From contig JBBTWM010000033.1 of the NCBI GenBank assembly GCA_038062795.1, forward strand, positions 5,615 to 69,614: a stretch of 64,000 nucleotides of DNA, read 5' to 3'. Both the position numbers and the translations under genes were made by a program. Below, piece by piece: positions 3,197 to 63,462 of the stretch. The notes under the pieces are model-generated. The model did no database searches, had not been told where the DNA came from, and saw only the letters and a program-made list of their open reading frames with translations. Origin of the DNA: Patescibacteria group bacterium. Its GTDB lineage: Bacteria; Patescibacteriota; Microgenomatia; UBA10105; UBA927. Every line of letters begins with the position of its first letter. The stretch's first letter is position 1.

Positions 3197-3941
3197 CGTG
3201 ATTATTATTGCAAAAAACGAAGAAGCCCGTATAGGGAAGTGTCTTGATGCGCTGGAATTTGCCGATGAACGGATAGTCGTTGATAATAGTTCGTCCGATC
3301 GTACGTCTCAAGTCGCTACAGAGCATGACGCAATCGTGCAGTTTGCACATTCCACGGATTTTGCCTTGCTACGAAATAACGCTGCTTCAAAGGTAAGAGG
3401 AGAGTGGCTATTGTATGTTGATGCGGACGAGATCGTGACGCCGGAATTAGGACGCAACATACGGCATATCATAACGGTGTGGAACCCGTCTTGTGAAACC
3501 GGGTATGAGATCCACCGAAAAAATTATTATCTCGGAAGAGCTTGGCCGACCGGAGAATGGATGCTTCGGTTATTCCGGCGCGATTCCTTCAAGGAATGGC
3601 GCGGCGAGTTACACGAGACCCCTGTTGTTTCCGGCGCGATCGGAAGAATCCAGGGCGATCTGTTACATGATACCCACCGGACGGTAACCGAGATGGTTGC
3701 AAAAACCAATGAATGGAGCGAGACCGAAGCGCTTCTTCGCAAAGCAATTCATCATCCGCCTATTACCTGGTGGCGGATTATCCGGGTGACACTCACGGGA
3801 TTCTGGAATTCATTTATCGGGCAAGGCGGATGGCGGATCGGCACGGTAGGCTGGATAGAAAGTATGTATCAGGGTTTCAGCATGTTTATCACTTACGCGA
3901 AATTGTGGGAGAAGCAACAAAAGAAAAATTATGAAAAGTAG
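3171..3941 (+). CDS. family 2 glycosyltransferase
   Basis: The GT2 domain begins at MSRKKITLSVIIIAKNEE..VVDNSSSDRT. The 3051 ATG would give a 146-nt overlap with the upstream gene, so I prefer 3171. Confidence 0.7.
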   Translation: MSRKKITLSVIIIAKNEEARIGKCLDALEFADERIVVDNSSSDRTSQVATEHDAIVQFAHSTDFALLRNNAASKVRGEWLLYVDADEIVTPELGRNIRHIITVWNPSCETGYEIHRKNYYLGRAWPTGEWMLRLFRRDSFKEWRGELHETPVVSGAIGRIQGDLLHDTHRTVTEMVAKTNEWSETEALLRKAIHHPPITWWRIIRVTLTGFWNSFIGQGGWRIGTVGWIESMYQGFSMFITYAKLWEKQQKKNYEK

Positions 3942-4758
3942 ACCAGTTGATACAGCGAAAATTGCATTATTCAGAGGAAGAAAGATACGAAGGATTCTTT
4001 ATCACAATGAATGGTGGTTTTCCGTTGTCGATATTGTTGAAGCACTGACCAATTCAGATAGACCAAGAAAATACTGGAGTGATTTAAAGAAAAAACTTAT
4101 TCATGAAGGTTACCGCGAAGTGTCCGAAAAAATCGGACAGTTGAAATTAATAGCTCCTGACGGCAGATTACGTGAGACTGACTGTGGGAATACTGAAACT
4201 ATTTTTCGGATTATACAAGCTATCCCATCTCCCAAAGCTGAACCTTTGAAGCGCTGGTTGGCACGCGTCGGATATGAACGAGTAAAGGAGATAGAAGATC
4301 CTGAGTTATCAACCAAGAGGACGAGGATGCTCTATACATTGAAAGGATACCCGGATGATTGGATCGAAAAACGCATGCGTGGTATTGCGATCCGCGAGGA
4401 GCTTACTGATGAGTGGTATAAGCGGGGCGCTCAAGAACAGAGAGATTATGAAATATTGACCGCCGAAATTTCTAAGGCTACATTCGGTATCACTCCCCTT
4501 CAATACAAAAAACTGAAAGGTTTAAAGAGAGAAAATCTTCGTGATCATATGGATGATTTTGAATTGATTTTCACCATGTTGGGGGAGCGCTCAACCACGG
4601 AAATTCATCGGAACGAAAACTCCAAAGGTGTCCCAAAGCTACAATCCGATGCGCGTGCCGGCGGCGAGATAGCAGGTGGCGCTAGGAGAAAATTAGAAAA
4701 GCGTCTTGGCAGGCCGATTGTTTCAAAGAAGAATTATCTGCCCGAAAATACCTCATGA
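3931..4758 (+). CDS. BRO-N domain / DinD (DNA-damage-inducible protein D)-like protein
   Basis: N-terminal IALFRGRKIRRILYHNEWWFSVVDIVEAL matches the BRO-N consensus (R....G..WF...DV...L). The ~275 aa length and a basic C-terminal half resemble E. coli DinD. Its start overlaps the GT2 stop. Confidence 0.5.
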   Translation: MKSRPVDTAKIALFRGRKIRRILYHNEWWFSVVDIVEALTNSDRPRKYWSDLKKKLIHEGYREVSEKIGQLKLIAPDGRLRETDCGNTETIFRIIQAIPSPKAEPLKRWLARVGYERVKEIEDPELSTKRTRMLYTLKGYPDDWIEKRMRGIAIREELTDEWYKRGAQEQRDYEILTAEISKATFGITPLQYKKLKGLKRENLRDHMDDFELIFTMLGERSTTEIHRNENSKGVPKLQSDARAGGEIAGGARRKLEKRLGRPIVSKKNYLPENTS

Positions 4759-40506: not shown

Positions 40507-41535
40507 ATGAACATTGTTATAACCGGCGGGGCCGGATTTATCGGATGTAATGCTGCGGCGTATTATCTGGCAAAAAAAGCAGATGTTATCGTCTTTGACA
40601 ACCTCTCCCGTGCAAATACCGATAAAAATCTTGCCTGGCTGAAAACGCTCGGGGGCAATCTTACCTATATAAAGGGAGATTTGCGTTCTATTGCTGATAC
40701 AGCCAAGCTTATTTCGTTTCTTGCGGATGCTGATGCAGTGCTTCATTTGGCTGCGCAAGTTGCCGTAACCACGTCGGTTATAAACCCACGGGAAGATTTC
40801 GAAATCAATGCAGTGGGCACATTTAATCTATTGGAAGCGATGCGGGCATCCGAAAGTCGGGCTAAGCTCATTTATTCTTCGACAAATAAAGTCTACGGAG
40901 GTATGGAGGATGTTGCAGTCGAGGAAAAGGACACTCGGTATGATTACGCAAATCTTCCGTACGGTGTGAGTGAAGATCGGCAGTTAGACTTTCACTCCCC
41001 ATACGGTTGTTCCAAGGGAGCTGCTGATCAGTATGTCCATGATTATGGCAGGATATACGGACTAGATACCGTCGTCATGCGTCAATCCTGTATTTATGGT
41101 CCCCGGCAGTTTGGTGTAGAAGATCAGGGGTGGGTCGCATGGTTTATCATCGCAACGGCATTGGGGCATAAATTGGCAATCTACGGAGATGGTAAGCAAG
41201 TGCGGGATCTTCTGTATGTCGATGATCTTATCGCAGCATACGATATGGCTATTCTAGCCGGTAAGAAAACCCGTGGAGGAATGTATAATATCGGAGGAGG
41301 GCCGAATAATACGCTTTCCGTTTGGCATGAGTTTGGTCCGATGCTGGAAAAGCTTTTCGGCAAAAAAATTCCGGTAACTCATGAGGACTGGCGCCCGGGA
41401 GATCAGAAAATATTCGTGGCAGACATCCGTAAAGCAAAAAAAGAATTCGGATGGGAGCCACGTGTGTCAGTAGAAGCTGGTATTGAGAAACTTTACATGT
41501 GGGTCAGCGCAAACAAAACGCTTTTTCGCTCCTAA
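40507..41535 (+). CDS. NAD-dependent sugar epimerase, CDP-paratose 2-epimerase (tyvelose epimerase)-like
   Basis: GGAGFIGCN..., SSTNKVYG, PYGCSKGAADQYV and RQSCIYGPRQFGVEDQGWVAWF closely match the CDP-tyvelose 2-epimerase / ADP-heptose epimerase branch of the SDR family. Confidence 0.6.
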   Translation: MNIVITGGAGFIGCNAAAYYLAKKADVIVFDNLSRANTDKNLAWLKTLGGNLTYIKGDLRSIADTAKLISFLADADAVLHLAAQVAVTTSVINPREDFEINAVGTFNLLEAMRASESRAKLIYSSTNKVYGGMEDVAVEEKDTRYDYANLPYGVSEDRQLDFHSPYGCSKGAADQYVHDYGRIYGLDTVVMRQSCIYGPRQFGVEDQGWVAWFIIATALGHKLAIYGDGKQVRDLLYVDDLIAAYDMAILAGKKTRGGMYNIGGGPNNTLSVWHEFGPMLEKLFGKKIPVTHEDWRPGDQKIFVADIRKAKKEFGWEPRVSVEAGIEKLYMWVSANKTLFRS

Positions 41536-41541
41536 TTCCGC

Positions 41542-42333
41542 ATGAAATCCACTGACTCGGAATCGCTTCATGATTATCCGCCGGAGGCATACGCTCTCCT
41601 TTCGGAAAGCGAAAAAAGACATTTCTGGTTTCAAGGGAGAAATATGATTATCCGGGAAGTGATTCGTTCATCGATCCGAGATAATAAAGGATTAAGTTTT
41701 TTGGAAATCGGATGCGGGACCGGGTATGTTTTAGCAGAGTTAGCAAGAATGGGATTTAAGGTAACCGGATTGGATATGCACGCAGAGGGTTTGGCTTATG
41801 CAAAGCTACGAGTTCCCACCGCAACATTTTTTGCGGGAAAATTAGATGAGTTCCGACCAAAAAAACTTTTTGACGCGGCAGGTATGTTTGATGTGCTGGA
41901 GCATATTCCGAACGATACGTCCGCCCTTGTAGAATGTGCAGGACTTCTCAAAAAAAATGGCATGCTGTACCTCACCGTTCCTGCTCGGTCAGAGCTGTGG
42001 TCTGTCTACGATGATATTTCCGGCCATAAACGGCGGTATACCAAGGGAAGCCTGAAGATCGTGTTAGAGAGAAGCGGGTTTCGCGTGAAATTTATCGGGT
42101 ACTTTGGCTTTTTTCAGTATGTTCCGCATTTGATAATGAAACGGTTACTTCTTAAGAAATCTCATGTAGCAAAGGCGGATACGATGGGTGTGTTGAAACG
42201 GATTTTGTGGCAGCCTCCGGGAATACTCAATTGGCTGCTGGAGCAGTCGTTTACACTCGATATGTTTCTCTCCAAATTTATCGAGTTACCTTTCGGGACA
42301 TCTCTCATCGTTTCCGCACGAAAAGCAGTATAA
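41542..42333 (+). CDS. class I SAM-dependent methyltransferase
   Basis: FLEIGCGTGYVLAELARMGFKVTGLDM is motif I, followed by FDVLEHIPND. Confidence 0.7.
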   Translation: MKSTDSESLHDYPPEAYALLSESEKRHFWFQGRNMIIREVIRSSIRDNKGLSFLEIGCGTGYVLAELARMGFKVTGLDMHAEGLAYAKLRVPTATFFAGKLDEFRPKKLFDAAGMFDVLEHIPNDTSALVECAGLLKKNGMLYLTVPARSELWSVYDDISGHKRRYTKGSLKIVLERSGFRVKFIGYFGFFQYVPHLIMKRLLLKKSHVAKADTMGVLKRILWQPPGILNWLLEQSFTLDMFLSKFIELPFGTSLIVSARKAV

Positions 42334-42349
42334 TTGGCTTTATAGCTGC

Positions 42350-43468
42350 ATGAATGTACTTATCCTCAATTGGAAAGATATCAGAAACCCCGATGTCGGG
42401 GGAGCTGAGATCATACTGTACGAATTATCTAAGCGTTTGGTACGTGACGGGCATTCCGTTACCTGGTTTTGTCGGACATGTAAGGGAGCGAAATCCCAAG
42501 AGACTATCGATGGCATTCGGATAATTCGCCGTGGAAATAGATTTACCGTCTATTGGGAGGCATACTTGTATTATCGTAAGCTTATAGTGAAGCCGGATAA
42601 AGTATTGGACTGTGTGAATACTATTTGCTGGCAAACTCCGCTTTATGTTCCCAAAGAAAAACGCATTGCGTACGTAAATCAGTTGGCAAAAGAGGTCTTT
42701 TTCTATGAATTGCCACCGGTTTTGTCGCATATCGCTTATTTTTTGGAGCCTTTGGAATATCTCACGTACCGAGATACAACGTTCCTCTGTTATTCCGAGA
42801 GTGTGAAAAAAGATATTACTACGTTCGGTATCCCGGAAAAAAATATATCGACATTTCCGATTGGCATAGATCACGATAGATACAAATCAGGTAAGAAATC
42901 CAAAGACCCGCTGTTTCTCTTTGTGGCGCGGCTTACTTCTATGAAACGACCTGATCTGTGTATTGAGGCGATGCGTATTGTCACACGGAAATATCCCAAG
43001 GCGAAACTTGCTATCGTAGGATATGGCCCTATGGAGGACGCACTGGAACATATGATTAGTGACTATAAACTTGGGGAGAATGTTATGCTTGTAAATAAGA
43101 ATCACTTGTTTTTTGATACCAATCCCAAAGATCAGAAAGTGAAGCTTATGCAGCAGGCATGGGCACTCCTTCTTCCGTCCGTCAAAGAAGGCTGGGGCAT
43201 GGTCGTTACGGAGGCAGCAGCCTGCGGTACAGCGAGTATCGTAACGGATGTTACAGGACTCCGGGATTCTGTAAAAGCTGAACAAACCGGAATTGTACTC
43301 GGACCAACCCCCTCAGTGGCTGATTTATCAGCAGCGATAATCCGCTTGATTACTGATAAGGCAAGGCAGGAAAATATGGGGAAGAACGCAAGCGTATTTA
43401 GTGATCGTTTTAGTTGGGAACGTTCATATGAATCATTTTTAACATTAATCAGTAGGGATACGCAGTGA
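42350..43468 (+). CDS. family 4 glycosyltransferase
   Basis: NPDVGGAEI at the N-terminus and EGWGMVVTEAAACGTASIV at the C-terminus. Confidence 0.75.
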   Translation: MNVLILNWKDIRNPDVGGAEIILYELSKRLVRDGHSVTWFCRTCKGAKSQETIDGIRIIRRGNRFTVYWEAYLYYRKLIVKPDKVLDCVNTICWQTPLYVPKEKRIAYVNQLAKEVFFYELPPVLSHIAYFLEPLEYLTYRDTTFLCYSESVKKDITTFGIPEKNISTFPIGIDHDRYKSGKKSKDPLFLFVARLTSMKRPDLCIEAMRIVTRKYPKAKLAIVGYGPMEDALEHMISDYKLGENVMLVNKNHLFFDTNPKDQKVKLMQQAWALLLPSVKEGWGMVVTEAAACGTASIVTDVTGLRDSVKAEQTGIVLGPTPSVADLSAAIIRLITDKARQENMGKNASVFSDRFSWERSYESFLTLISRDTQ

Positions 43469-43480
43469 TATAATAATACT

Positions 43481-44314
43481 ATGAAACGCGGCATTGTCAG
43501 CATCGTTATCCCTACAAAAAATTCTACTGCTTTTTTAGAGAATACGTTAAAAAGTATAAAAGCACAGTCATATCCGTATATAGAAACCATTGTTGTCGAC
43601 GGAAACTCCACAGATAATACTGTTCTACTCGCTAAAAAATATAATGCCACAATCATGATCTATGCCCCAAAGGTACAGAAAGGTATATTTGATGCGCCTC
43701 ATAAACGTAATTACGGTATGGCACGGGGAAAAGGGGAATATGTGTATTGGTTGGATGCCGACATGGAATTACCCAAAAATTTAATTAAGGAAGCGGTCGC
43801 GCTGACAAAAAAAGGATACGACGGCATTATTTTTTCAGAAGATTCTTTTGGCGAAGGAATATGGGCAAATGCGAAGCAGTTGGAACGGCGGTGTTATTGG
43901 GGCGATTTGACCGTTGAAAGCCCGAGATTTTTCACCAAAAAAGCGTGGGATGATATCGGCGGGTTTGACCTTTCATTGGGGGCCGGGGGCGACGATATAG
44001 ATCTTACCCAAAAATTAATGGAAAAAGGATATAAAATTCAATGGACAGAGAATATTATCCGCCATAACGAAGGGAAACTCTCCATTACAAAATTATTTAA
44101 GAAGAGGTTCATGTATGGGAGGGAGATGGTCAATTACCTGAAAAAACGGCCTAAATCATGGATAGCCAGTTATAATCCGATAAAATTTGCCTATTTCCGT
44201 CATTGGAAGCTCCTTCTTGCCCACCCCGTGAATACCGTATTGTTTATTGTGATGAGGCTTATTGAGTATACAGGAGGCTTTTCCGGTCTTATATATTCCT
44301 ATATAACGAAATAA
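43481..44314 (+). CDS. family 2 glycosyltransferase
   Basis: VSIVIPTKNSTAFL...VVDGNSTDNT. Confidence 0.75.
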   Translation: MKRGIVSIVIPTKNSTAFLENTLKSIKAQSYPYIETIVVDGNSTDNTVLLAKKYNATIMIYAPKVQKGIFDAPHKRNYGMARGKGEYVYWLDADMELPKNLIKEAVALTKKGYDGIIFSEDSFGEGIWANAKQLERRCYWGDLTVESPRFFTKKAWDDIGGFDLSLGAGGDDIDLTQKLMEKGYKIQWTENIIRHNEGKLSITKLFKKRFMYGREMVNYLKKRPKSWIASYNPIKFAYFRHWKLLLAHPVNTVLFIVMRLIEYTGGFSGLIYSYITK

Positions 44315-44342
44315 CTGCATTCCGGATATGCTGCTTTTTTTG
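44315..44342 (+). terminator. possible rho-independent terminator
   Basis: An imperfect hairpin GCATTCCGGATATGC is followed by TGCTTTTTTTG just after the GT2 stop. This is the only intergenic gap over 60 bp in this stretch. Confidence 0.35.
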
Positions 44343-44394
44343 CATGTGTCGATGCGTTATGATTACTCATTATTGACGAAAGGGGAATTATTGT

Positions 44395-45108
44395 ATGAAG
44401 AAATTAAAAAATCAGAAGCTTAGCGGCGTTAATGTGGATTTGTTGCATTGGTCTGAAAAAGAATACGACAAGCTCCACAAGGGGAAAGGGTTTTATGAGG
44501 AGAGGGAATATTACGAGGTGCTCGCCACACTTCTCAAAGGAAAAAAGGCAATAGATATCGGTTGCGGTGAGGGCTATGTCGAGCACTTTGCGCCGGAAAT
44601 AACCGCAGTAGATTTTTCTTCTGAGGCTCTCAAGCGTGCAAAAAAGAATGGAGCAAAACATCTGGTTAAAGCTCCTGCCGAAGCGTTGCCGTTTGGCGAT
44701 AATACGTTTGAAGTCGCACTATCCGCCGGAACCCTCGAGCATCTCGTAAACCAACAAAAAGCCATAGAGGAAATGGGTAGAGTGGCAAAGGTTCAGATTA
44801 TTATCGCTCATGCAAAGCTTCCGTGGCTATATGAGATGGCTCATAAGCTCATCAACTTGGCCTACGGATGGAAACAGGACCAGCCGCTTGAGCGGCCGCT
44901 GTCGCTTTCTGAGATTAACGCAATGCTTTCCCGCGCTGGTCTGAAAGTAATTTTTCAGGGCATATTTAATTATGTCGATCTCCGATGGTTATGGAAAGGT
45001 TTGCCGTATGGCCTCCTTAAGATTCCGTCGCATTATTTTATTGTTTCGATAAAGTCCGAGGCATCAGGGCGAAGATTTTTGAAGGAAGAGAGCGGCTGGA
45101 AGATATGA
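44395..45108 (+). CDS. class I SAM-dependent methyltransferase
   Basis: AIDIGCGEGYV...VDFS...LEHL. A GGGGA RBS lies upstream. Confidence 0.7.
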   Translation: MKKLKNQKLSGVNVDLLHWSEKEYDKLHKGKGFYEEREYYEVLATLLKGKKAIDIGCGEGYVEHFAPEITAVDFSSEALKRAKKNGAKHLVKAPAEALPFGDNTFEVALSAGTLEHLVNQQKAIEEMGRVAKVQIIIAHAKLPWLYEMAHKLINLAYGWKQDQPLERPLSLSEINAMLSRAGLKVIFQGIFNYVDLRWLWKGLPYGLLKIPSHYFIVSIKSEASGRRFLKEESGWKI

Positions 45109-46319
45109 AGTATCTTCACTTGGTTCAATGGAGTCCCCGCGAGAGTTTCGGCGGGTATGAAACCATTGTGCGCGAGACCGCATTGACCCAGCAGAAACGG
45201 CATAGCACCGTGTATGTAGTAGGCAGGAGAGTCGGACGTAACAGAAGCATTGATTCTGTATCAGTATCAGGAGTTACCTACGTAGAAGTGAGCCACCCGA
45301 TGAGGCGCCGTCCGAGCAGCTTGGATGTGGGAATAATTGGAATCGTGATGCTATTTGTGGAAATATTCGTTTCGCTTTGGTTACTGACGCCGGTTGTTTG
45401 GCGCATTATCCGAAGAGAACGGATAGACGCGGTGATTTTCTACGGCATACATCTTATGCTCATGGGTCCGATAGTCCGTCTTGGGGGCACTCTGGCGTTG
45501 TTGGGGCTTGAGGTGTTGCAAAAAAATCAGGAAGTGGGACGCATGTCCTTTCTCTACTGGTTTAGAAGGTTGAAATATGCGTGTTTTAACGGAATTTTTA
45601 CCTACACGTATTATTTTTATCTGGATAATCGAAAGTATAACAATATAGCCTTGCTCAAAACGTACGCACCCCGAATTCCTGTGGCGTATATCCCTTGGGG
45701 TATTGATGTTAAGGCTACGAGTTCCGTAAAAAGCGACCAGTCCCTTGTGTCCTGGAAAAAGAAAACATCATCCGTTATCATTCTCTGTCCAAGAAGGTTG
45801 GTAGAGGAAAAGGGCGTCCGTTATCTGCTGGAAGCAGTGCCTATGATACGAAAAAAAATCCCCGGTGCATATGTTGTTTTTGCCGGAGACGGAATTTTAC
45901 GCCGCGAGATGGAAAATCGGGCGAAAGAACTCGGGGTAGCCTCGTGTGTCAGGTTTACCGGGTTCATGAGCCATGAAAAAACACTGCAAATGATGAAGGC
46001 GTCGGATATGATTGTGGTGCCTTCTTCTGGCGAAGAATCGTTCGGTATGGTATTTTTAGAAGCATACGCATTAGGTGTACCGATCGTCTCAACATGGTTC
46101 GGAGGAATACCAAATGTAGTTGAGCAGCATAAAACAGGGTTGCTTGTGGCTGTAAAGCGACCGGACGAATTAGCAGATTCGGTGATACGTATTGTCAAAA
46201 ATATGCGTGAAAGAGAGCAGTATATAGCAGCAGGAAAAGAATTGGTAAGCGCTAAATTTACCATCGAAAAAACGACCGATACCATAGACAGATTTGTACG
46301 TACTTTGCAGAAAGCCTAA
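45105..46319 (+). CDS. family 4 glycosyltransferase
   Basis: EESFGMVFLEAYALGVPIVSTWFGGIPNVV. ATGA overlap with the upstream gene. Confidence 0.75.
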   Translation: MKYLHLVQWSPRESFGGYETIVRETALTQQKRHSTVYVVGRRVGRNRSIDSVSVSGVTYVEVSHPMRRRPSSLDVGIIGIVMLFVEIFVSLWLLTPVVWRIIRRERIDAVIFYGIHLMLMGPIVRLGGTLALLGLEVLQKNQEVGRMSFLYWFRRLKYACFNGIFTYTYYFYLDNRKYNNIALLKTYAPRIPVAYIPWGIDVKATSSVKSDQSLVSWKKKTSSVIILCPRRLVEEKGVRYLLEAVPMIRKKIPGAYVVFAGDGILRREMENRAKELGVASCVRFTGFMSHEKTLQMMKASDMIVVPSSGEESFGMVFLEAYALGVPIVSTWFGGIPNVVEQHKTGLLVAVKRPDELADSVIRIVKNMREREQYIAAGKELVSAKFTIEKTTDTIDRFVRTLQKA

Positions 46320-46322
46320 TTT

Positions 46323-47510
46323 ATGATTTCACTTATCAAATCTACATTTTATAACGAAAAGAAAACGAAGCAGCAATTATGTAAATTTATCAGCAGCGCC
46401 GATAAATTAAGCATCGGAAAACAATGCAGAATTTTTGAACAAAAATTCGCGGCATACCAGGATCGGGCGCATTGTCTGTTCGTCAATAGCGGCAGCTCCG
46501 CTAATCTTGCGTTAATACAGGCTTTATTGAACCTAGGGAGGATAAAAAAAGGTGATGCAATTGGATTTTCCGCTTTGACGTGGTCCACCAACGTTATGCC
46601 GCTTATTCAATTGGGACTCACCCCCGTTCCGGTTGATATAGAACTTGATACATTGAACGTGTCGTCCCACACGCTGGAAGAAGCACTGGCGCGACAACCG
46701 ATCAAGCTTTTATTTCTGACAAATTTATTAGGTTTTTGCGATGATATCGATGTCATATCCGATATTTGTCGAAAGCGGAATATACAACTGATAGAAGACA
46801 ATTGTGAGTCGTTGGGTACGGTTTACAAAGGCAAAAAATTAGGAAATTGGGGATTAGCTAGCACCTTTTCGTTTTATGTAGGGCACCACATGTCAACGAT
46901 TGAGGGAGGCGCAGTCGTTACTGACGATAACGATCTTATCACCATGCTGCATCTGGTCCGGGCACACGGGTGGGATAGGAATCTGACCGAAGACAAGCAG
47001 CTGTTTTTGCGTGTCAAGCATAACGTCAACTCAACATTTTATTCCCGGTATACATTTTATGATCTCGGATATAATTTCAGAACGACGGAGATCCAGGGCT
47101 TTTTGGGGAATAACCAGCTTCAGTATCTTCCAGATATTATCCGTAAGAGGGAGCGCAACTTTTTTTATATGGCAAAGCCGATTTATGCACGCGATGATCT
47201 TTATTTTCCGATACGGTACGATCATATAGAGACCGTGTCTAATTTCGCCGTTCCGATTATTTGCCGTTCACAGAAGATACGCGATGCGTTGGTCAAAGCA
47301 TGCGATCGTAATATCGAAATCAGGCCTGTGGTAGGCGGAGACATGACGAAACAGCCATTTTTCAGTAAATATCAAAAAACTTCTAAAAAGTCATTCACGC
47401 AAAATGCTGAACTGGTGCATACGCAGGGGTTATATTTCGGAAATAACCCCGATCTGACAGTGAAAGAAATGAAAACGATTATCGATATATTTACTACATT
47501 GAGGGTTTAA
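46323..47510 (+). CDS. DegT/DnrJ/EryC1/StrS-family PLP/PMP enzyme, probable sugar 3-dehydrase (E1/RfbH-like) rather than aminotransferase
   Basis: The SFSFYVGHHMSTIEGGAV block has His-His where aminotransferases have the Schiff-base Lys. This matches the CDP-6-deoxy-D-xylo-4-hexulose-3-dehydrase (E1) signature F..HH.T..EGG. Confidence 0.55.
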   Translation: MISLIKSTFYNEKKTKQQLCKFISSADKLSIGKQCRIFEQKFAAYQDRAHCLFVNSGSSANLALIQALLNLGRIKKGDAIGFSALTWSTNVMPLIQLGLTPVPVDIELDTLNVSSHTLEEALARQPIKLLFLTNLLGFCDDIDVISDICRKRNIQLIEDNCESLGTVYKGKKLGNWGLASTFSFYVGHHMSTIEGGAVVTDDNDLITMLHLVRAHGWDRNLTEDKQLFLRVKHNVNSTFYSRYTFYDLGYNFRTTEIQGFLGNNQLQYLPDIIRKRERNFFYMAKPIYARDDLYFPIRYDHIETVSNFAVPIICRSQKIRDALVKACDRNIEIRPVVGGDMTKQPFFSKYQKTSKKSFTQNAELVHTQGLYFGNNPDLTVKEMKTIIDIFTTLRV

Positions 47511-47513
47511 ATT

Positions 47514-48491
47514 ATGGATACGTTTTGGACTGGTAAAAAAGTATTGGTAACCGGTGGAACGGGTTTTATCGGTAGCCATGTGGTAGAAAAACTGGTTGAC
47601 AGAAAGGCAGTGGTAACCGTATTGGATCGAATGAGGAATGGTATTATAAAAAATATTAGCAATCTTAAAGATACGGCGAAATTCGTCCCGGGGGACTGTA
47701 CGGACCTGGAAACGTCAAGAAAAGTCGTTGCAGGTCAGGAGATCGTAATGAATCTTGCTGCCCACGTAGGAGGCATAGCCTACAACCAAGACCATCAGGC
47801 GTCATTGCTGAGGGATAATATGCTCATTGCATCGACTATGCTGGAGGCGGCCCGTCTTGAGCATACTGAAAGATTTCTGGTTGTTTCCTCCGCATGTGTC
47901 TATCCGCATGACGCAAAAATTCCCACAGCGGAAACCGAAGGATTTCGTGGGGAGCCTGAGCCGACAAACGGAGGGTATGGATGGGGCAAGCGCATGGCAG
48001 AAAAACTCGGTATGTACTATGCACATCAGTATGGGATGAAAATCGGAATTGTGCGCCCATACAACGCATACGGACCGCGCGATCACTTTGATCCGAAGAC
48101 GTCACATGTGATCCCCGCCCTTATTAAGCGTGTTTTCGATGGTGAAAATCCGGTAGTCGTATGGGGCAGCGGAAAGCAATCGCGGGCGTTTCTTTATGTC
48201 GAAGATCTGGCGGAGGGTATGATTGCAGCTATAGAAAAATATCCTGTTCCTGATCCGGTGAATTTGGGAACTGACGAAGAAATAACTGTTGCTGATCTTA
48301 TACAGTCGATTATCAAAATATCCGGTATGAATTCTTCCTATACGCTAGATACTACCAAGCCTGATGGCAGTCCGCGTCGAAACAGCGACAACACGAAAGC
48401 GAAAGAAAAAATTGGATTTATAGCTCCTACCCGATTACTCGAGGGTCTCAAGAAGACTGTTGACTGGTATAAAAACAATGAAGGTAAATAA
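47514..48491 (+). CDS. NAD(P)-dependent sugar epimerase/dehydratase (SDR, extended)
   Basis: VLVTGGTGFIGSH, YGWGK (YxxxK) and SSACVYP. The N-terminal FWTGKKVLVTG resembles the start of CDP-glucose 4,6-dehydratases, but the rest fits only a generic WcaG-like SDR. Confidence 0.6.
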   Translation: MDTFWTGKKVLVTGGTGFIGSHVVEKLVDRKAVVTVLDRMRNGIIKNISNLKDTAKFVPGDCTDLETSRKVVAGQEIVMNLAAHVGGIAYNQDHQASLLRDNMLIASTMLEAARLEHTERFLVVSSACVYPHDAKIPTAETEGFRGEPEPTNGGYGWGKRMAEKLGMYYAHQYGMKIGIVRPYNAYGPRDHFDPKTSHVIPALIKRVFDGENPVVVWGSGKQSRAFLYVEDLAEGMIAAIEKYPVPDPVNLGTDEEITVADLIQSIIKISGMNSSYTLDTTKPDGSPRRNSDNTKAKEKIGFIAPTRLLEGLKKTVDWYKNNEGK

Positions 48492-49650
48492 CCGCTATTC
48501 GGGCTCGCGAATTGTCATCGTTAGTCATATTTACACCACAGGCCCCTCACATATGTTGGAGTGTTACCTGCGAAATAAAGGTGCCGAGGTATTGTTTTTA
48601 GGACACCCATTTCATTTTGCACCGGAACCCCGTTCTCACTATCGCTGGTCCCAGAGCGGCAAGACCGGAGAAAATCATTATGTTAATTTATTTTTTCGAA
48701 ATGATGTTATAAACGTAATAAAAGACAGTCTACTGACGTTATGGTGTGTGATGAAGAGCGGAAAATTCGATGCATACGTCGGTATCGACGGAGTCAATGC
48801 TGTTATGGGTGTGCTGCTAAAAAAATTGGGAATTGTTCGGCGGGTAATTTATTACACTATCGATTTTGTCCCGAAGAGATTTTCATTTGCTCCTCTTAAT
48901 GCGCTTTATCTCTGGCTAGACCGCGTAGCTGTCTCTGGCAGCGACATTGTTTGGAATCTCTCAGGCAGGATGACACAGGAGCGGGAAAAATACGGATTGT
49001 CCAAAGCATATCGAAGTAAGCAGCATGTTGTGCCAATGGGAACCGAAGGGTTTCAGAAAAAGGGCAGCCGGGATACCTATCGGAAAAACAGCATCGCGCA
49101 CATGGGGCATCTCGTTCCTGTGCATGGCGTGTCGCTTCTCATTCAAGCGTTGCCTGAAATTGTGAAAAAAGTGCCGTCTGCACATCTCGAAATTCTTGGA
49201 GGCGGCCCTGAAGAGGACGATCTGAAACGTTTGGCGAGCCAGATGAATGTAGCTAGATACATAACTTTTCACGGATATATAAAAAGCCATGATGAATTGC
49301 TTACGATGTTATCCGAATGCGCAGTAGGTGTCGCTCCCTATGTTGACAGCGCTGATAGCTTCATCAGGAATTCGGATCCGGGCAAAGTAAAGGCTTATTT
49401 GGATGCCGGATTGCCTGTAATTGTTACCAAAGTTCCCGATGTTTGGCGGGAACTCGAGAAGTATAAGGCAGGTGTCGGTATTGAGTACGATATTCATGCT
49501 CTTTCTGATGCGGTGATATGGATTTTGTCCGATGAAAAAAGGCTATCAACATACAGGGAAGGAGCTAATGTTATGTCTCGTAAATACCGATGGGAAAATA
49601 TTTATACAAAGGCGCTGAGTTTTATTGACTTGGGCAGCAGGATGCCATAG
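48478..49650 (+). CDS. GT-B glycosyltransferase-like protein (GT4-related), paralog of 51491
   Basis: The C-terminal half shows a Rossmann-like pattern (HLEILGGGPEEDDLKRL). The distinctive N-terminal block YYTIDFVPKRFSFAPLNALYLWLDRVA is shared with the 51491 gene. Confidence 0.5.
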   Translation: MKVNNRYSGSRIVIVSHIYTTGPSHMLECYLRNKGAEVLFLGHPFHFAPEPRSHYRWSQSGKTGENHYVNLFFRNDVINVIKDSLLTLWCVMKSGKFDAYVGIDGVNAVMGVLLKKLGIVRRVIYYTIDFVPKRFSFAPLNALYLWLDRVAVSGSDIVWNLSGRMTQEREKYGLSKAYRSKQHVVPMGTEGFQKKGSRDTYRKNSIAHMGHLVPVHGVSLLIQALPEIVKKVPSAHLEILGGGPEEDDLKRLASQMNVARYITFHGYIKSHDELLTMLSECAVGVAPYVDSADSFIRNSDPGKVKAYLDAGLPVIVTKVPDVWRELEKYKAGVGIEYDIHALSDAVIWILSDEKRLSTYREGANVMSRKYRWENIYTKALSFIDLGSRMP

Positions 49651-49679: not shown

Positions 49680-50675
49680 ATGAAAAAAGCAAGCAAAAAT
49701 ATCAAGACTGCGTTAGTATGCGGAGCCGGAGGATTTATCGGCGGACACCTCGTGAAGCGCCTCAAGAAAGAAGGCTATTGGGTGAGGGGGGCAGATATCA
49801 AGCGGCATGAATACAGCAAAAGTCAGGCAGACGAGTTTTTGGTAGGGGACCTTCGTGATCAGAATTTTTGCAAAAAAGTGTTTAACCGTCCGCTTGATGA
49901 GGTCTACCAGCTTGCGGCAGATATGGGAGGAGCAGGGTATATTTTTACCGGCGATCATGATGCCGACGTGATGCACAATTCTGCACAAATAAATCTCAAC
50001 GTTTTGCATTTTGGGAGACTCGCAAAAATTAAAAAGATATTTTTTTCTTCCTCAGCATGTATTTATCCTGAACGGAACCAGATGGATGCCAGTAAGCCGA
50101 ATTGTGAGGAATCATCAGCCTACCCTGCGGCCCCCGACAGCGAGTACGGATGGGAAAAGATTTTCAGCGAACGGCTATATCAGGCGTTTCGGAGAAATTA
50201 CGATATGGAGGTGCATATTGCGCGTTTTCATAATATTTTTGGCCCTGAAGGAAGCTGGAATAACGGCAAAGAAAAGTCTCCTGCAGCCATCTGCCGCAAA
50301 GTAGCTCAGGCCCAAAACGGGGGCACTATAGAAATGTGGGGGGATGGCAAACAGACGCGTTCTTACCTTTACATAGATGAGTGTCTTGAGGGTGTCCGGA
50401 GACTGATGAATAGCAAATTTTCCGGACCGGTCAACATAGGGTCGGAAGAGATGGTAAGTATCAATAAGCTCGCCGAAATGGCAATGCAGATAGCAGGAAA
50501 AAAACTGAATATTAAGCATATCAAAGGACCCTTGGGAGTACGCGGAAGATCCTCAGATAATAGATTAATCAGAAAACAGTTAGATTGGGAACCGACGAGC
50601 AAGTTGTTAGACGGCCTCACCAAAACGTATACATGGATAGACGAACAGGTCAAACATCATCGCAAGGACAAATAA
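49680..50675 (+). CDS. GDP-mannose 3,5-epimerase (GME) homolog
   Basis: Long collinear motif matches to plant GME: AADMGGAGYI, SSACIYPE, HNIFGPEGSWNNGKEKSPAAICRK, EMWGDGKQTRSYLYIDECLEGVRRL, PVNIGSEEMVSINKLAEM and GVRGRSSDNRLIRKQLDW. Confidence 0.7.
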   Translation: MKKASKNIKTALVCGAGGFIGGHLVKRLKKEGYWVRGADIKRHEYSKSQADEFLVGDLRDQNFCKKVFNRPLDEVYQLAADMGGAGYIFTGDHDADVMHNSAQINLNVLHFGRLAKIKKIFFSSSACIYPERNQMDASKPNCEESSAYPAAPDSEYGWEKIFSERLYQAFRRNYDMEVHIARFHNIFGPEGSWNNGKEKSPAAICRKVAQAQNGGTIEMWGDGKQTRSYLYIDECLEGVRRLMNSKFSGPVNIGSEEMVSINKLAEMAMQIAGKKLNIKHIKGPLGVRGRSSDNRLIRKQLDWEPTSKLLDGLTKTYTWIDEQVKHHRKDK

Positions 50676-50682
50676 TACAACT

Positions 50683-51504
50683 ATGCAGACAAACTTAGTT
50701 ATCGGTTCCGAGGGATTTATCGGCACGCCCTTTTGCCGTTTCCTCGAAGGAAAAGGAGAAAAAGTTATCCGTTTTGATATCAGACGGGACAAAGAAGAAG
50801 ATGCCCGATTTGTAAAGCTTCCGTTTTCGAACGTCGATAAAGTATATTTTCTCGCATGGGACGTAGGCGGGAGCAAATACCTCTACGAGCCCAAACTTCA
50901 AAAAAACCAGCTTGATTGGAATCTTTCGCTCATGAAAAACGTATTTGACCAGCTGGAGAAAGCCAAAAAACCGTTCGTTTTTATTTCGAGCCAGTTATCT
51001 GAAGAAGTCGATACGGTATATGGGGTAACGAAACGGTTGGGTGAGGTGTGGACCGATCTTTTAGGAGGCAAATGCGTACGTGTATGGAATGCCTATGGAT
51101 ATATGGAGGGGCAGGATGTGAAGAGTCACGTGATTTCTGACTTTATCTATCAGGCGCTCAAAACTAAAAAAATTACGATGATGACCAATGGCACTGAATG
51201 GCGTCAGTTTACCCATATTACCGATTTATCCAATGCTTTTTATATGGCACTCAATTCCAATGGACTACGGAAAATCGTATATGACGCGAGCAGTTACGAA
51301 TGGGTCCAGATTATTGACATGGCCAACATGATTGCCGAGTTTACCGGAGCCACAGTTGTCCCGGGCACCAAAATCGGTCATGACCCAATTGCCTCGCCAA
51401 ACAGAGGACGAATTCCCGGATGGTTGCCGACTATCGAGCTTCGGGACGGGATCCACGCGATGGTTGAAGAGGCTAAGCTCCGGATAAAGAATGAAAAACG
51501 CTAA
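50683..51504 (+). CDS. NAD(P)-dependent epimerase/reductase (short SDR)
   Basis: LVIGSEGFIGTPF...YGVTKRLGE. It is 273 aa, the size class of 4-ketoreductases and dTDP-rhamnose-reductase-like enzymes. Confidence 0.5.
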   Translation: MQTNLVIGSEGFIGTPFCRFLEGKGEKVIRFDIRRDKEEDARFVKLPFSNVDKVYFLAWDVGGSKYLYEPKLQKNQLDWNLSLMKNVFDQLEKAKKPFVFISSQLSEEVDTVYGVTKRLGEVWTDLLGGKCVRVWNAYGYMEGQDVKSHVISDFIYQALKTKKITMMTNGTEWRQFTHITDLSNAFYMALNSNGLRKIVYDASSYEWVQIIDMANMIAEFTGATVVPGTKIGHDPIASPNRGRIPGWLPTIELRDGIHAMVEEAKLRIKNEKR

Positions 51505-60938: not shown

Positions 60939-62495
60939 ATGAACATGAGTAAGGTAACTGGTAAAAAGACTTCTCGGTATTTTCTATTTCTTTTATTTCT
61001 GTTGTTTGCAGTATTCCTTGCCGTAGTATTCCGGCTTTATCAGCGGATAGGCGTTTTTGGGTGCGGCGATGAGTGTATCAATTACACGGCTGGCTACTTT
61101 ATCCTCCTGGGCAAATCGCTTTACAGTCAAATATTTTTTAATCACCAACCGACATTGGCGTTTATAAGCACTTTCATACAATGGGTGTCACAGCCGAAGG
61201 ATCTCTATCATCTCGTGCTCTACCACAGGGTATTTATGATTTTATACTCGTTTGGTATGGCGGTGTTTCTGATTTGGCGTTTTCGGCTGCGCGCCATGTT
61301 ATTTTTACTTCTTTATGAAGGGACGAAATACTACATGTACGGATATCAATTTATCGGGGAGGCGCTTATCGTTTACCCGCTTGTATATCTTATCGGAGTA
61401 TTGTGGGAATCCTTCGAATTTAAACGAGTATCCCGAGTAGATATTTTTCTTACGGCAATCTTCACGAGTTTAGTGATTTGGACACGGGAGCCGTATGTGC
61501 CGGTAGCGGTAGTACTCGGCGGTATGCTTCTTTGGCGGGAGAAATCAAATCGGTATGCCCGCTGGGCAAGCGTTCTTATTATTTTCCTTTTGCTCGCGCC
61601 CTTTATCGTCATCCCTTTTGGGGAATACGTGTATCAGGTTATTGTCATTAACATCCCGGCGGCTAGCTCTGTGGTCGGTGGAGGGAATAGGATTTCATCT
61701 ATATTGTATTCGCTGCTCTATCCTATATTGTTGTTTTTCCATGGTAAATGGAGCTATTTGAGGTTGATAGAAATTGGTATCGCTTCATTTTTTTGGGTTA
61801 GTCTGGTTATTTGGTGGCGGGGAACCAAAAAATATACTCCGATAGGCATTTTGCTTCTTATCCTGGGACTTGCGGGTATTAGGACGGTAGCACCGGGAAC
61901 CATGTACTTTGAAGCGTTTCACATGCTCCCGTGGTATGCATTATTTGTCATGGTTACCGTATTGATCATGACCTCAATAAAAGAAAAAAAGATTCAGAGC
62001 ATATTAGTTGGTGCGTTTGTTATTTTTTTCTGTTGGGCATTTGCCTCGCCACAGTCATTTATATGGGAAAATGTGGATACGCGAGGCGAATTTGCGAGCC
62101 AATATTCCCAATATACCCAGTATTCTCAGGCGATACAAATAGCCATAAAGCCTTCTCAGACTCTATTTTTGGATGTGTGGGACGACATTATCTATTGGGA
62201 GGCCAAACGCACCTCTTCATACCCGTTAAGTATCTATATACCGGCGGAAAGTTCGATACCCAGGTATCAGGAAATGCGCAGTGCTATGTTTCTCGAGTCA
62301 CCTCCTGATGCGTATTACAGTTGTCCCGTTGCACAAACGCTCACGAACAGTCCTCCGCAGGTTGTGAAGCAGGATTATGTGCAGCTTTCCAGCATTGGTA
62401 AACCCAGCTGCTTGTATATCAAGAAGGTGATAGCAAAAGCGCTCACCCCGGATCAGTGGCAGCGACTTCATGATCTGGGATTTTCTCAACTGTAG
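60939..62495 (+). CDS. polytopic membrane protein, family A paralog (DE..HQP motif)
   Basis: GDECINYTAGYFILLGKSLYSQIFFNHQPT aligns with the 12891 protein. The ATG at 60939 is preferred over the TTG at 60885. Confidence 0.45.
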   Translation: MNMSKVTGKKTSRYFLFLLFLLFAVFLAVVFRLYQRIGVFGCGDECINYTAGYFILLGKSLYSQIFFNHQPTLAFISTFIQWVSQPKDLYHLVLYHRVFMILYSFGMAVFLIWRFRLRAMLFLLLYEGTKYYMYGYQFIGEALIVYPLVYLIGVLWESFEFKRVSRVDIFLTAIFTSLVIWTREPYVPVAVVLGGMLLWREKSNRYARWASVLIIFLLLAPFIVIPFGEYVYQVIVINIPAASSVVGGGNRISSILYSLLYPILLFFHGKWSYLRLIEIGIASFFWVSLVIWWRGTKKYTPIGILLLILGLAGIRTVAPGTMYFEAFHMLPWYALFVMVTVLIMTSIKEKKIQSILVGAFVIFFCWAFASPQSFIWENVDTRGEFASQYSQYTQYSQAIQIAIKPSQTLFLDVWDDIIYWEAKRTSSYPLSIYIPAESSIPRYQEMRSAMFLESPPDAYYSCPVAQTLTNSPPQVVKQDYVQLSSIGKPSCLYIKKVIAKALTPDQWQRLHDLGFSQL

Positions 62496-62520
62496 CGAAT
62501 TGCTATGGTACAATATCCGT

Positions 62521-63462
62521 ATGATGAAAGGCACAGTGGTCGTGACCGGGGGAGCTGGATTTATCGGTAGTCATCTGGTCGATGCACTGCTTGCCAGGGG
62601 TCACAAAGTATACGCGCTTGATAATCTCATTACCGGAAACGAAGAAAATCTTGCAGAGGCGAAAAAACACCCGGAGTTCACCTTCATCAAATATGACGTG
62701 ATAAACGAGTTGCCCGTTTTAGGGCAAATTGATTATATCTATCATCTTGCTTCTCCTGCGTCCGTCCCAGATTATCAGAAATATCCGGAAGAGACAGCGC
62801 TTGTAAACACCGTTGGTACGAGGGCGCTCCTGAAAGTTGCCAAAGCGCACGGGGCCACGTTTCTTTTTACCTCCACCTCGGAGGTGTATGGGGATCCTAA
62901 GGAACATCCCCAGAAGGAAACGTATTGGGGAAACGTAAATCCTAATGGAGTCCGCGCATGTTATGATGAATCCAAGCGCTTCGGAGAGATGATGACTATG
63001 TTATATATGCGCACATATGGCGTCGACGTGAGGATTGCCCGGATATTTAATACGTATGGCCCCAGGATGCGTCCTACCGACGGACGGGTGATATCTAATT
63101 TTGTGAACCAGGCGCTCAAGGGAGAACCCATTACGGTATATGGAGATGGTAAGCAAACGCGCTCGTTTTGTTTCATAAGCGATATGGTTGAGGGACTTGT
63201 GAGTCTTATGGAAAAGGAATTGACGAAGGGCGAAGTGGTGAATATCGGTAATCCGGAAGAATATACCATGATCGATTTGGCTCACAAGGTGAAAAAGATG
63301 ATGGGAGCTACTTCCGAAATTGTTTATACGGATTTACCATTAGATGACCCGATGCAACGAAGACCCGATATTTCAAAAGCGAAAAAATTGCTCAGCTGGG
63401 AACCCAAGGTGTCCGTAGACCAGGGACTCGAAAAAACAATTGCGTATTATAAGGCGCTGTAA
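62521..63462 (+). CDS. UDP-glucuronate decarboxylase (UDP-xylose synthase)
   Basis: VVVTGGAGFIGSHLVD, YDESKRFGE and VRIARIFNTYGPRM...GRVISNF are the UXS signature. Confidence 0.7.
   Translation: MMKGTVVVTGGAGFIGSHLVDALLARGHKVYALDNLITGNEENLAEAKKHPEFTFIKYDVINELPVLGQIDYIYHLASPASVPDYQKYPEETALVNTVGTRALLKVAKAHGATFLFTSTSEVYGDPKEHPQKETYWGNVNPNGVRACYDESKRFGEMMTMLYMRTYGVDVRIARIFNTYGPRMRPTDGRVISNFVNQALKGEPITVYGDGKQTRSFCFISDMVEGLVSLMEKELTKGEVVNIGNPEEYTMIDLAHKVKKMMGATSEIVYTDLPLDDPMQRRPDISKAKKLLSWEPKVSVDQGLEKTIAYYKAL

Follow-up and report, generated by a model that had tools for sequence, protein, structure and literature searches.

Two adjacent genes in a 64,000-nucleotide stretch of Patescibacteria (Candidate Phyla Radiation, CPR) DNA, hereafter called the window, are predicted to form a two-enzyme cassette that makes a 3,6-dideoxy-L-hexose, and with moderate confidence this sugar is taken to be GDP-L-colitose. 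The first gene, at 46323, encodes a putative sugar 3-dehydratase of the ColD type and the second, at 47514, a putative epimerase-reductase; judged from their sequences, the two would be the functional equivalent of colD plus colC. They form the core (46323-48491) of a cassette at 44395-49650, which occupies the variable part of a CPR surface-glycan locus that is otherwise conserved. A nucleotide-sugar substrate carried on GDP is favoured, again with moderate confidence, over one carried on CDP, which is considered doubtful. The window comes from a metagenome-assembled genome (MAG) from Hainich groundwater and was examined together with the next 10 kb downstream (~74 kb); the same proteins are found on ENA contigs ERZ1292616-18 and in NCBI assembly GCA_964362825.1. 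An earlier note on this DNA, made from the letters alone, had drawn attention to open reading frames at 40507-41535, 46323-47510 and 47514-48491, which were found on the forward strand as described, and had proposed that together they hint at a 3,6-dideoxyhexose-type branch. The C-3 deoxygenation part of that proposal stood, but the tie between the dehydratase and the TyvE-like gene at 40507 did not, as the two are inherited separately. The note's fallback idea of a GDP-linked sugar is the one that the evidence favours. The features that carry the main finding are as follows.

46323..47510, + strand: predicted ColD-type nucleoside diphosphate (NDP)-4-keto-6-deoxyhexose 3-dehydratase, dependent on pyridoxamine/pyridoxal 5'-phosphate (PMP/PLP), 395 aa (Pfam DegT, PDB scores, neighbour-joining trees, AlphaFold2 model).
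46884-46886, + strand: codon of the catalytic His188 in the dehydratase gene.
47514..48491, + strand: predicted NDP-4-keto-sugar epimerase/4-reductase of the GMER/ColC type, 325 aa (NCBIfam, PDB, motifs).

The protein encoded at 46323 belongs to the DegT family (Pfam PF01041, 213.9 bits) and carries the motif FSFYVGHHMSTIEGG. As the earlier note had seen, a pair of histidines, His188 and His189 (codons at nt 46884-46889), occupies the position of the Schiff-base lysine of the aminotransferases, and this pair is invariant in the closest homologues (120/120). His188 aligned with His188 of ColD, the residue mutated in PDB entries 3b8x (H188N) and 2r0t (H188K), and also with His220 of E1, the first histidine of the E1 AHH. 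Because both ColD and E1 carry the pair, it is best regarded as a mark of sugar 3-dehydratases generally, and not, as had been proposed, as a hallmark of E1 (RfbH) specifically. Among PDB sequences the 46323 protein scored 202 bits against ColD (2gms), 152 bits against E1 (3bcx), 133 bits against a putative NDP-4-keto-6-deoxyglucose 3-dehydratase (9wvy), and ~105 bits or less against aminotransferases. Hundreds of CPR homologues were found at 65-88% identity.

The description of this protein as E1-like was not borne out. Its score against the NCBIfam RfbH equivalog model NF011936 was 225.5 bits, below the cut-off of 423. The cysteine-bearing insertion of E1, RDCYCAPGCDNTC, which follows the catalytic histidine, aligns to a shorter, cysteine-free stretch (AHGWDRNL...) in the CPR proteins. 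There is no cysteine between residues 161 and 314 of the 46323 protein, and of the E1 [2Fe-2S] cysteines it keeps only that of EDNCES, the other three being gone together with the insertion that carries them. A phmmer search was made of 1.84 billion cluster representatives (50% identity), from which the best 150 were taken and the 115 full-length sequences among them analysed. Histidine was present at position 188 in all of these (115/115), and the cysteine cluster in none (0/115). In a neighbour-joining tree E. coli ColD fell inside this iron-sulfur-free radiation, with Yersinia E1 at its base and the 46323 protein nested deep within it. Phylogenetic placement had been suggested in the note as a check; it grouped the protein with ColD and E1, far from the lysine-bearing aminotransferases. 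Identification as a true aminotransferase was rejected on that clustering and on the histidine at the lysine position. An AlphaFold2 model (predicted local distance difference test score, pLDDT, 77.7) gave ColD as the top Foldseek match, with template modelling (TM) scores of 0.79-0.80, followed by E1 at 0.75-0.76, although a fold search separates these two only weakly (TM 0.79 vs 0.75).

ColD is known to hydrolyse its sugar-enamine intermediate and to regenerate PMP with glutamate; E1 and SpnQ require an iron-sulfur cluster and an external reductase (PMC8987622). The 46323 protein is assigned, on the sequence comparisons above, as a putative ColD-type enzyme and not as an E1-like one. As it would be of the ColD type and has no iron-sulfur motif, an E3 reductase is not expected to be needed, which would explain why none is present. 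The earlier note had rightly remarked that a cytidylyltransferase (DdhA) and E3 are absent; neither was found in the window or the next 10 kb, and the window does not contain the complete pathway.

The gene at 47514 begins 3 nt past the dehydratase stop codon. The best PDB matches of its product were GDP-fucose synthases and GDP-mannose 3,5-epimerases (7ll6, 180 bits), which are short-chain dehydrogenases/reductases (SDRs). Its active site reads SSACVYP (Ser and the Cys acid), YGWGK (Tyr and Lys) and SHVIPAL (the His base), with no (S/T)-D-K motif. By published criteria (PMC8787198), a Ser/Tyr/Lys set with a Cys acid and a His base belongs to GMER/Fcl, and GDP-mannose 3,5-epimerase uses a Lys base. 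The protein is a member of a large CPR family (68-80% identity) and is 33-35% identical to the Fcl-like proteins of gmd-linked CPR operons. Genes for SDRs of the same type lie directly downstream of the dehydratase gene in five related loci (L008, L010, L024, L029 and L047). The note had likened the protein to CDP-glucose 4,6-dehydratases from its N-terminal FW.GK.V.VTG motif. That identity was rejected, given the SSACVYP motif and the score against TIGR02622, the model for CDP-glucose 4,6-dehydratase, which was 42.9 bits and far under the cut-off of 278. Nor is the N-terminal motif diagnostic, because it also occurs in an unrelated SDR (SDR312, described below), and the SDK-motif dehydratase-like protein of relatives does not have it. 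The 47514 protein is thus best described as a predicted epimerase-reductase of the GMER/ColC type, from a divergent subfamily.

The remaining genes of the cassette and of the surrounding locus core that enter the argument are listed here.

40507..41535, + strand: predicted TyvE-family NDP-hexose C-2 epimerase, 342 aa, a core gene outside the dehydratase cassette (PDB 9rl0, 1orr).
44395..45108, + strand: S-adenosylmethionine-dependent (SAM) methyltransferase with which the variable cassette begins (Pfam Methyltransf_11, 60 bits).
45105..46319, + strand: glycosyltransferase of family 4 (GT4) in the variable cassette, its end 3 nt before the dehydratase gene (Pfam Glycos_transf_1, 131.9 bits).
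48478..49650, + strand: GT4 glycosyltransferase of the cassette, with a 14-nt overlap with the end of the epimerase-reductase gene (Pfam Glyco_trans_1_4 and Glycos_transf_1; gene call in locus L001).
49680..50675, + strand: GDP-mannose 3,5-epimerase-like (GME-like) SDR, 331 aa, a core gene (PDB 2c59, plant GME, 328.5 bits).
50683..51504, + strand: short SDR of divergent sequence, 273 aa, forming a pair with the GME-like gene and likewise part of the core (Pfam Epimerase, 66.5 bits).

All genes between ~32.7 and 57 kb lie on the + strand with intergenic gaps of -100 to +80 nt, and a scan of the window found no excess of promoter-like or terminator-like sites over shuffled sequence. This tightly packed, co-directional gene run is best read as one long surface-glycan operon. 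The GME-like protein has its Cys and Lys acid/base residues in place, and the presence of its gene would indicate that GDP-mannose is used in the operon. Lying two genes downstream, it is the only other nucleotide-specific hint near the cassette in the window. Its neighbour, the short SDR, contains GxxGxxG and YxxxK, and its PDB matches were weak (<=38 bits) and of generic epimerase/dehydratase types; it could be a sugar reductase.

The protein encoded at 40507 gave 339 bits against the CDP-tyvelose 2-epimerase TaTyvE (PDB 9rl0) and 328 bits against StTyvE (1orr), so that its resemblance to CDP-paratose/tyvelose 2-epimerases, asserted in the note, was confirmed. It is ~50% identical to each of these enzymes, which are 66% identical to each other. 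An identity as an ADP-heptose epimerase was rejected (82 bits against TIGR02197, compared with 339 bits for 9rl0). The protein keeps Thr124-Asn125-Lys126, Tyr164, Lys168, Gln205 and the phosphate-binding Arg237 and Arg299, and has a shorter internal loop than the characterised TyvE enzymes. Residue roles have been described for TaTyvE, including that of Tyr203, which closes over the cytosine of CDP (PMC13098431). At this position the 40507 protein has glutamate (GVEDQGW vs ATYDQGW in both characterised enzymes), as do 119 of 120 CPR homologues (GxEDQGW), and the substitution may reflect a different nucleotide preference. The scores and conserved residues mark the protein as a genuine 2-epimerase of the TyvE family. 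TaTyvE interconverts CDP-glucose and CDP-mannose and is inactive on a 3-deoxy substrate (PMC7851689), and Salmonella TyvE can make GDP-mannose from GDP-glucose in vitro (PMC12188384). Homology to TyvE thus need not mean 3,6-dideoxy chemistry.

Four relatives with long contigs (L061-L064) were compared with positions 36661-56947 of the window. They share a scaffold that runs GT4, GT2, flippase-like protein, GT2 (267 aa), TyvE-like epimerase, (methyltransferase), GT4 (370 aa) and GT2, and that resumes after a variable segment with GME-like, short SDR, GT4, methyltransferase and a protein of ~1170 aa. The TyvE-like orthologues of all four are 73-83% identical to the 40507 protein and sit in the same slot, between the GT2 (267 aa) and GT4 (370 aa) genes. 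The GME-like and short SDR genes form a tightly coupled pair that is kept at 76-84% identity in three relatives, L061, L063 and L064 (82-84% for the GME-like protein, 76-83% for the short SDR). No ColD-type dehydratase gene was found within 10 kb in any of the four (0/4), and the called genes that were compared included no orthologue of the 44395 methyltransferase. Where the window has the 3-dehydratase and reductase, the variable slot of L061 is filled by an acetyltransferase and an ordinary DegT aminotransferase. The reverse arrangement is seen in L010 and L011, where the dehydratase cassette is present and there is no TyvE orthologue between the GT2 (267 aa) and GT4 (369 aa) genes, and other loci also have the dehydratase without a TyvE orthologue. 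As each occurs without the other, the TyvE-like gene and the dehydratase cassette are two independent modules. The 40507 protein would thus carry out C-2 epimerisation of an NDP-hexose in a branch separate from that of the dehydratase. By analogy, the swappable middle cassette resembles O-antigen-like serotype variation.

The neighbourhoods of related dehydratase genes were compared in 46 loci taken from genomes that represent species, all of them of Patescibacteria lineages or else CPR MAGs under a wrong label, together with loci from exact-protein look-ups; annotation was by BLAST against a reference set. The nearest match of the dehydratase among contigs of the species-representative genomes was 81% identical. 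Three types of gene context follow the dehydratase tree. In a basal CPR clade (L051, L052, L053, L054 and L057) gmd is directly beside the dehydratase gene, and in L051 and L057 an Fcl-type gene (429-442 bits) lies directly downstream of the dehydratase, giving a canonical gmd-colD-fcl colitose operon. In a Saccharibacteria clade, whose dehydratases are 63-69% identical to the 46323 protein, eight loci have a Gmd-like gene at a distance of 6-9 kb. The Gmd-like proteins were picked by BLAST with an E. coli Gmd probe sequence. Five of them were scored against TIGR01472 (cut-off 415), among which those of L057 (594 bits) and L037 (434 bits) were above the cut-off, that of L020 (385 bits) was just below and that of L035 (168 bits) well below; the other Gmd calls are BLAST matches of 45-66% identity to the probe. 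The third context is that of the window's own Microgenomates-type clade, which comprises nine loci (the window, L005, L006, L008, L010 and L015-L018).

A further SDR recurs among the relatives. SDR312 (312 aa, motif STTHVYG; for example L010:6658-7596, with orthologues in L015-L018, L025, L048 and L064) is encoded immediately before the ColD-type gene, and the two frequently overlap; this is the slot taken by gmd in the basal relatives. It has TTH where 4,6-dehydratases have TDE, SDK or TSE, and a PDB search gave generic epimerase/dehydratase matches. SDR312 is a candidate reductase or atypical dehydratase.

Several observations weigh against a GDP-L-colitose cassette. The 46323 protein is 34% identical to E. 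coli ColD and has Gly187 where ColD has Ser187, and its AlphaFold2 model is of low confidence at the active-site loops 186-192 and 217-250. The 47514 protein scored 209.9 bits against the NCBIfam GDP-L-fucose synthase model NF047922, which leaves it short of the equivalog cut-off of 500. None of gmd, manC, rfbF, rfbG, E1, E3, a cytidylyltransferase or another 4,6-dehydratase was found in the ~74 kb, so that the substrate-forming 4,6-dehydratase and nucleotidyltransferase are encoded outside it whichever reading holds. No gmd gene lies within 10 kb in the nine loci of the window's clade (0/9). Seven of these nine have, within the same span, an RfbF-like gene resembling those for glucose-1-phosphate cytidylyltransferase (TIGR02623, 264 bits, cut-off 300), paired with an SDK-motif, RfbG-like SDR that resembles CDP-glucose 4,6-dehydratase (TIGR02622, 192 bits); set against the other clades, this gave a Fisher p = 4e-6. 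TyvE-family SDRs are also encoded close to the dehydratase in several loci of the clade. The RfbF/RfbG-like pairs, with gmd in none, are the strongest argument for a CDP-linked alternative, a modified form of the note's main reading, in which the ColD-type enzyme has switched to CDP-4-keto-6-deoxy-D-glucose or its manno epimer and the RfbF/RfbG-like enzymes are encoded elsewhere. Such a route to a CDP-3,6-dideoxyhexose would be E3-independent, with the Fcl-like SDR yielding an ascarylose- or colitose-type L-sugar and the TyvE-like protein acting on a CDP-sugar of that pathway. Consistent with it are the presence of a TyvE orthologue in the window, L015 and L017, a TyvE-family paralogue (SDR348) encoded directly after the dehydratase/SDR pair in L010, L015, L016, L017 and L018, and the replacement of Pro253 in an active-site loop of ColD, otherwise invariant, by Thr or Val throughout the window's clade. 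Other evidence makes it an unlikely explanation. No further clade-specific substitution was found, and of 54 alignment columns invariant in the Gmd-linked CPR members and E. coli ColD, the window's clade keeps 52; the dehydratase family is sister to the gmd-linked ColD orthologues. The independent inheritance of the TyvE-like gene and the dehydratase, the inactivity of TaTyvE on a 3-deoxy substrate and the absence of rfbF and rfbG from the window also count against it. In addition, L008 has a true E1-type dehydrase gene immediately upstream of its ColD-type gene (extein 56% identical to Yersinia E1, with the Fe-S motif, DCWCDTGKDNTC), and L018 a partial copy. As these loci keep an E1-type gene of their own, the CDP branch there has its own 3-dehydrase, and the E1-type and ColD-type enzymes encoded side by side probably act on different substrates. 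The RfbF/RfbG pair of L008 is followed directly by an aminotransferase and an acetyltransferase, consumers of its own.

The same ColD-type chemistry might instead be applied to another GDP- or NDP-sugar, such as a 6-deoxy-4-keto-heptose, as in Campylobacter jejuni, or a dTDP-hexose. The C3-dehydratases of C. jejuni are 62-67% identical to ColD and act on GDP-6-deoxy-4-keto-heptose (PMC10440746), and members of the family can therefore differ in the sugar they accept; the match to 9wvy, named for an NDP-4-keto-6-deoxyglucose substrate, and the lack of substrate-forming enzymes in the window are also compatible with this idea. It is regarded as improbable, as neither heptose genes (GmhA/HddA/HddC-type) nor RmlA/RmlB were found in the window or related loci, and Gmd is the only 4,6-dehydratase encoded directly adjacent in relatives. 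Far less credible still is the proposal that the 46323 protein is no dehydratase at all, and is instead an aminotransferase-like or inactive DegT homologue in which the histidine substitution is incidental. SpnQ can transaminate in the absence of its reductase (PMC8987622), and the residue that is glycine here, Ser187 in ColD, influences dehydratase versus aminotransferase behaviour, although it is not conserved among characterised dehydratases (preprint 10.1101/2021.09.04.459008). Against this stand the invariance of His188 in hundreds of CPR homologues as well as in every representative cluster analysed, the clustering with ColD and E1, the tight coupling to an epimerase-reductase gene and the strong conservation of the family across many genomes (70-88% identity). 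Lastly, some unconventional sugar logic in CPR bacteria was considered and, taking its two forms jointly, is thought unlikely: (a) the Glu203-type TyvE-like protein makes NDP-mannose from NDP-glucose, or (b) the ColD-type enzyme uses a CDP-4-keto-6-deoxyhexose. Under (a) the carrier could be GDP, and the epimerase would feed the GME-like and ColD-type branch in organisms without the usual mannose-phosphate route; under (b) CDP-3,6-dideoxyhexoses would, for the first time, have a route that needs neither E3 nor an iron-sulfur cluster.

For the favoured cassette, the substrate, product and chemistry are inferred from homology, building on the gene anatomy, active-site residues, missing iron-sulfur motif, phylogenetic placement and neighbourhood patterns observed. 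With PMP bound, the ColD-type enzyme would form a Schiff base to the keto group at C-4 of an NDP-4-keto-6-deoxyhexose. His188 would then take the C-4' proton, and the C-3 hydroxyl would be expelled. Hydrolysis of the enamine would give the 4-keto-3,6-dideoxy sugar and ammonia, with PMP remade from PLP by means of L-glutamate, and the whole step would proceed with neither an iron-sulfur cluster nor an E3 reductase. The GMER/ColC-type SDR would next epimerise C-5 through its Cys/His pair and reduce C-4 through Ser/Tyr/Lys and NAD(P)H, and a neighbouring GT4 would transfer the finished sugar. The TyvE-like protein and the GME-like/short-SDR pair would act in separate branches of the locus core.

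Several further features of the related loci and of the window were recorded. The E1-type gene of L008 (L008:7265-9961) is split by a 476-aa LAGLIDADG intein just after the catalytic histidine (AHQMS/C...HN/TMGEGG); the partial copy in L018 lies at L018:20534-21178. Four ColD-type representatives of 838-888 aa (P0288, P0294, P0323 and P0369) have an insertion at the same active-site position, which suggests a recurrent intein site in sugar 3-dehydratases. A module recurring in L006 (17312-21179), L007 and L008 (1-6314) combines the RfbF-like and RfbG-like (SDK) genes with an SDR of 311 aa and a transketolase split into N and C halves, and its product could be a CDP-sugar with a two-carbon branch or of some other unusual kind. 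In L005 the RfbG-like gene is followed instead by one for an LdpA-like iron-sulfur protein.

The entire 64 kb of the window is a glycan-biosynthesis island. Besides GT2 and GT4 transferases it contains more than 10 GT-C membrane proteins of the PMT_2 and YfhO types, along with flippase-like proteins, methyltransferases and a number of nucleotide-sugar SDRs. At 5397-32693 more than 10 paralogous GT-C-type membrane proteins (PMT_2, YfhO, PTPS_related) are encoded in a row, on both strands, and this array appears to be an unusually dense set of lipid-linked-sugar transferases. A BRO-N domain protein (phage antirepressor-like family; 3931-4758) sits among the glycosyltransferase genes of the island. 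At the window edge and just past it (62470-63462 and L012:11225-12211) a UDP-xylose synthase (360 bits to human UXS1) and a GalE (394 bits to TIGR01179) are encoded, and UDP-sugar branches therefore feed the same island.

The names under which these proteins are deposited differ from the assignments made here. The TyvE-like protein is called 'GDP-mannose 4,6-dehydratase' at NCBI, after the name of its Pfam domain. The dehydratase is a 'DegT/DnrJ/EryC1/StrS aminotransferase family protein' at NCBI, and its relatives are 'CDP-6-deoxy-D-xylo-4-hexulose-3-dehydrase' at JGI. The evidence does not agree with any of these names. Colitose, tyvelose, abequose and ascarylose have been described mainly as sugars of Gram-negative O-antigens (PMC8987622), and a literature search found no paper, in the library searched, linking colitose or dideoxyhexoses with Patescibacteria. 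The chemistry itself is already known and the cassette belongs to a known pathway. The points of interest are the breadth and cassette behaviour of this chemistry in CPR bacteria, the question of which nucleotide serves as carrier in the Microgenomates clade, and a TyvE subfamily whose base-capping residue is altered and which may be of use to engineers of sugar-nucleotide epimerases. A ColD-type dehydratase paired with a GMER-type reductase occurs widely in Patescibacteria, is strongly conserved there and behaves as a swappable cassette in a conserved locus. This suggests that the surface glycans of these ultrasmall episymbionts differ from strain to strain in the manner of O-antigens, which could bear on host recognition.

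Among characterised systems, ColD (WbdK) of E. coli O55 and Yersinia pseudotuberculosis (2GMS, 3B8X) is the best match to the 46323 protein in both sequence and fold. The two share the DegT fold, a catalytic histidine with the same residue number, the lack of a [2Fe-2S] motif, a similar length (395 aa here, 390 aa in ColD) and an adjoining gene of the Fcl/ColC type. They differ, besides the identity of 34% and the glycine in place of Ser187, in that the 46323 protein has a tyrosine at the position of E1 Tyr217, that its clade has no gmd nearby, and that its host is a CPR bacterium, whereas the characterised ColD enzymes are from Gram-negative bacteria and serve lipopolysaccharide O-antigen synthesis (PMC8987622). 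E1 (AscC/DdhC/RfbH, 3BCX) has in common with it the fold, the His-His pair, the Y-x-x-H spacing and, as predicted for the 46323 protein, C-3 deoxygenation of a 4-keto-6-deoxy sugar. E1, however, is ~40 aa longer, has a C-X57-C-X-C-X7-C motif and requires E3. The 46323 protein has no such motif and is not expected to need E3, and the E1 partners DdhA, DdhB and DdhD are absent from the open reading frames of the window and the next 10 kb. The 47514 protein is, like ColC and GDP-L-fucose synthase, an extended SDR with Ser/Tyr/Lys, a Cys acid and a His base, encoded immediately downstream of a 3-dehydratase. It belongs to a divergent subfamily (210 bits, cut-off 500), and its likeness to ColC is a putative one. 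Unlike StTyvE (1ORR) and TaTyvE (9RL0), the 40507 protein is encoded in the core of a glycan locus, independently of any 3-dehydratase. The C3-dehydratases of C. jejuni HS:5/HS:11 are also of the ColD type, PLP-dependent and E3-independent, and are encoded in a surface-polysaccharide cluster with a partner epimerase/reductase. They act on a heptose and are served by a cupin-type C5-epimerase and a separate C4-reductase, whereas here a single GMER-type enzyme is predicted to fill both roles.

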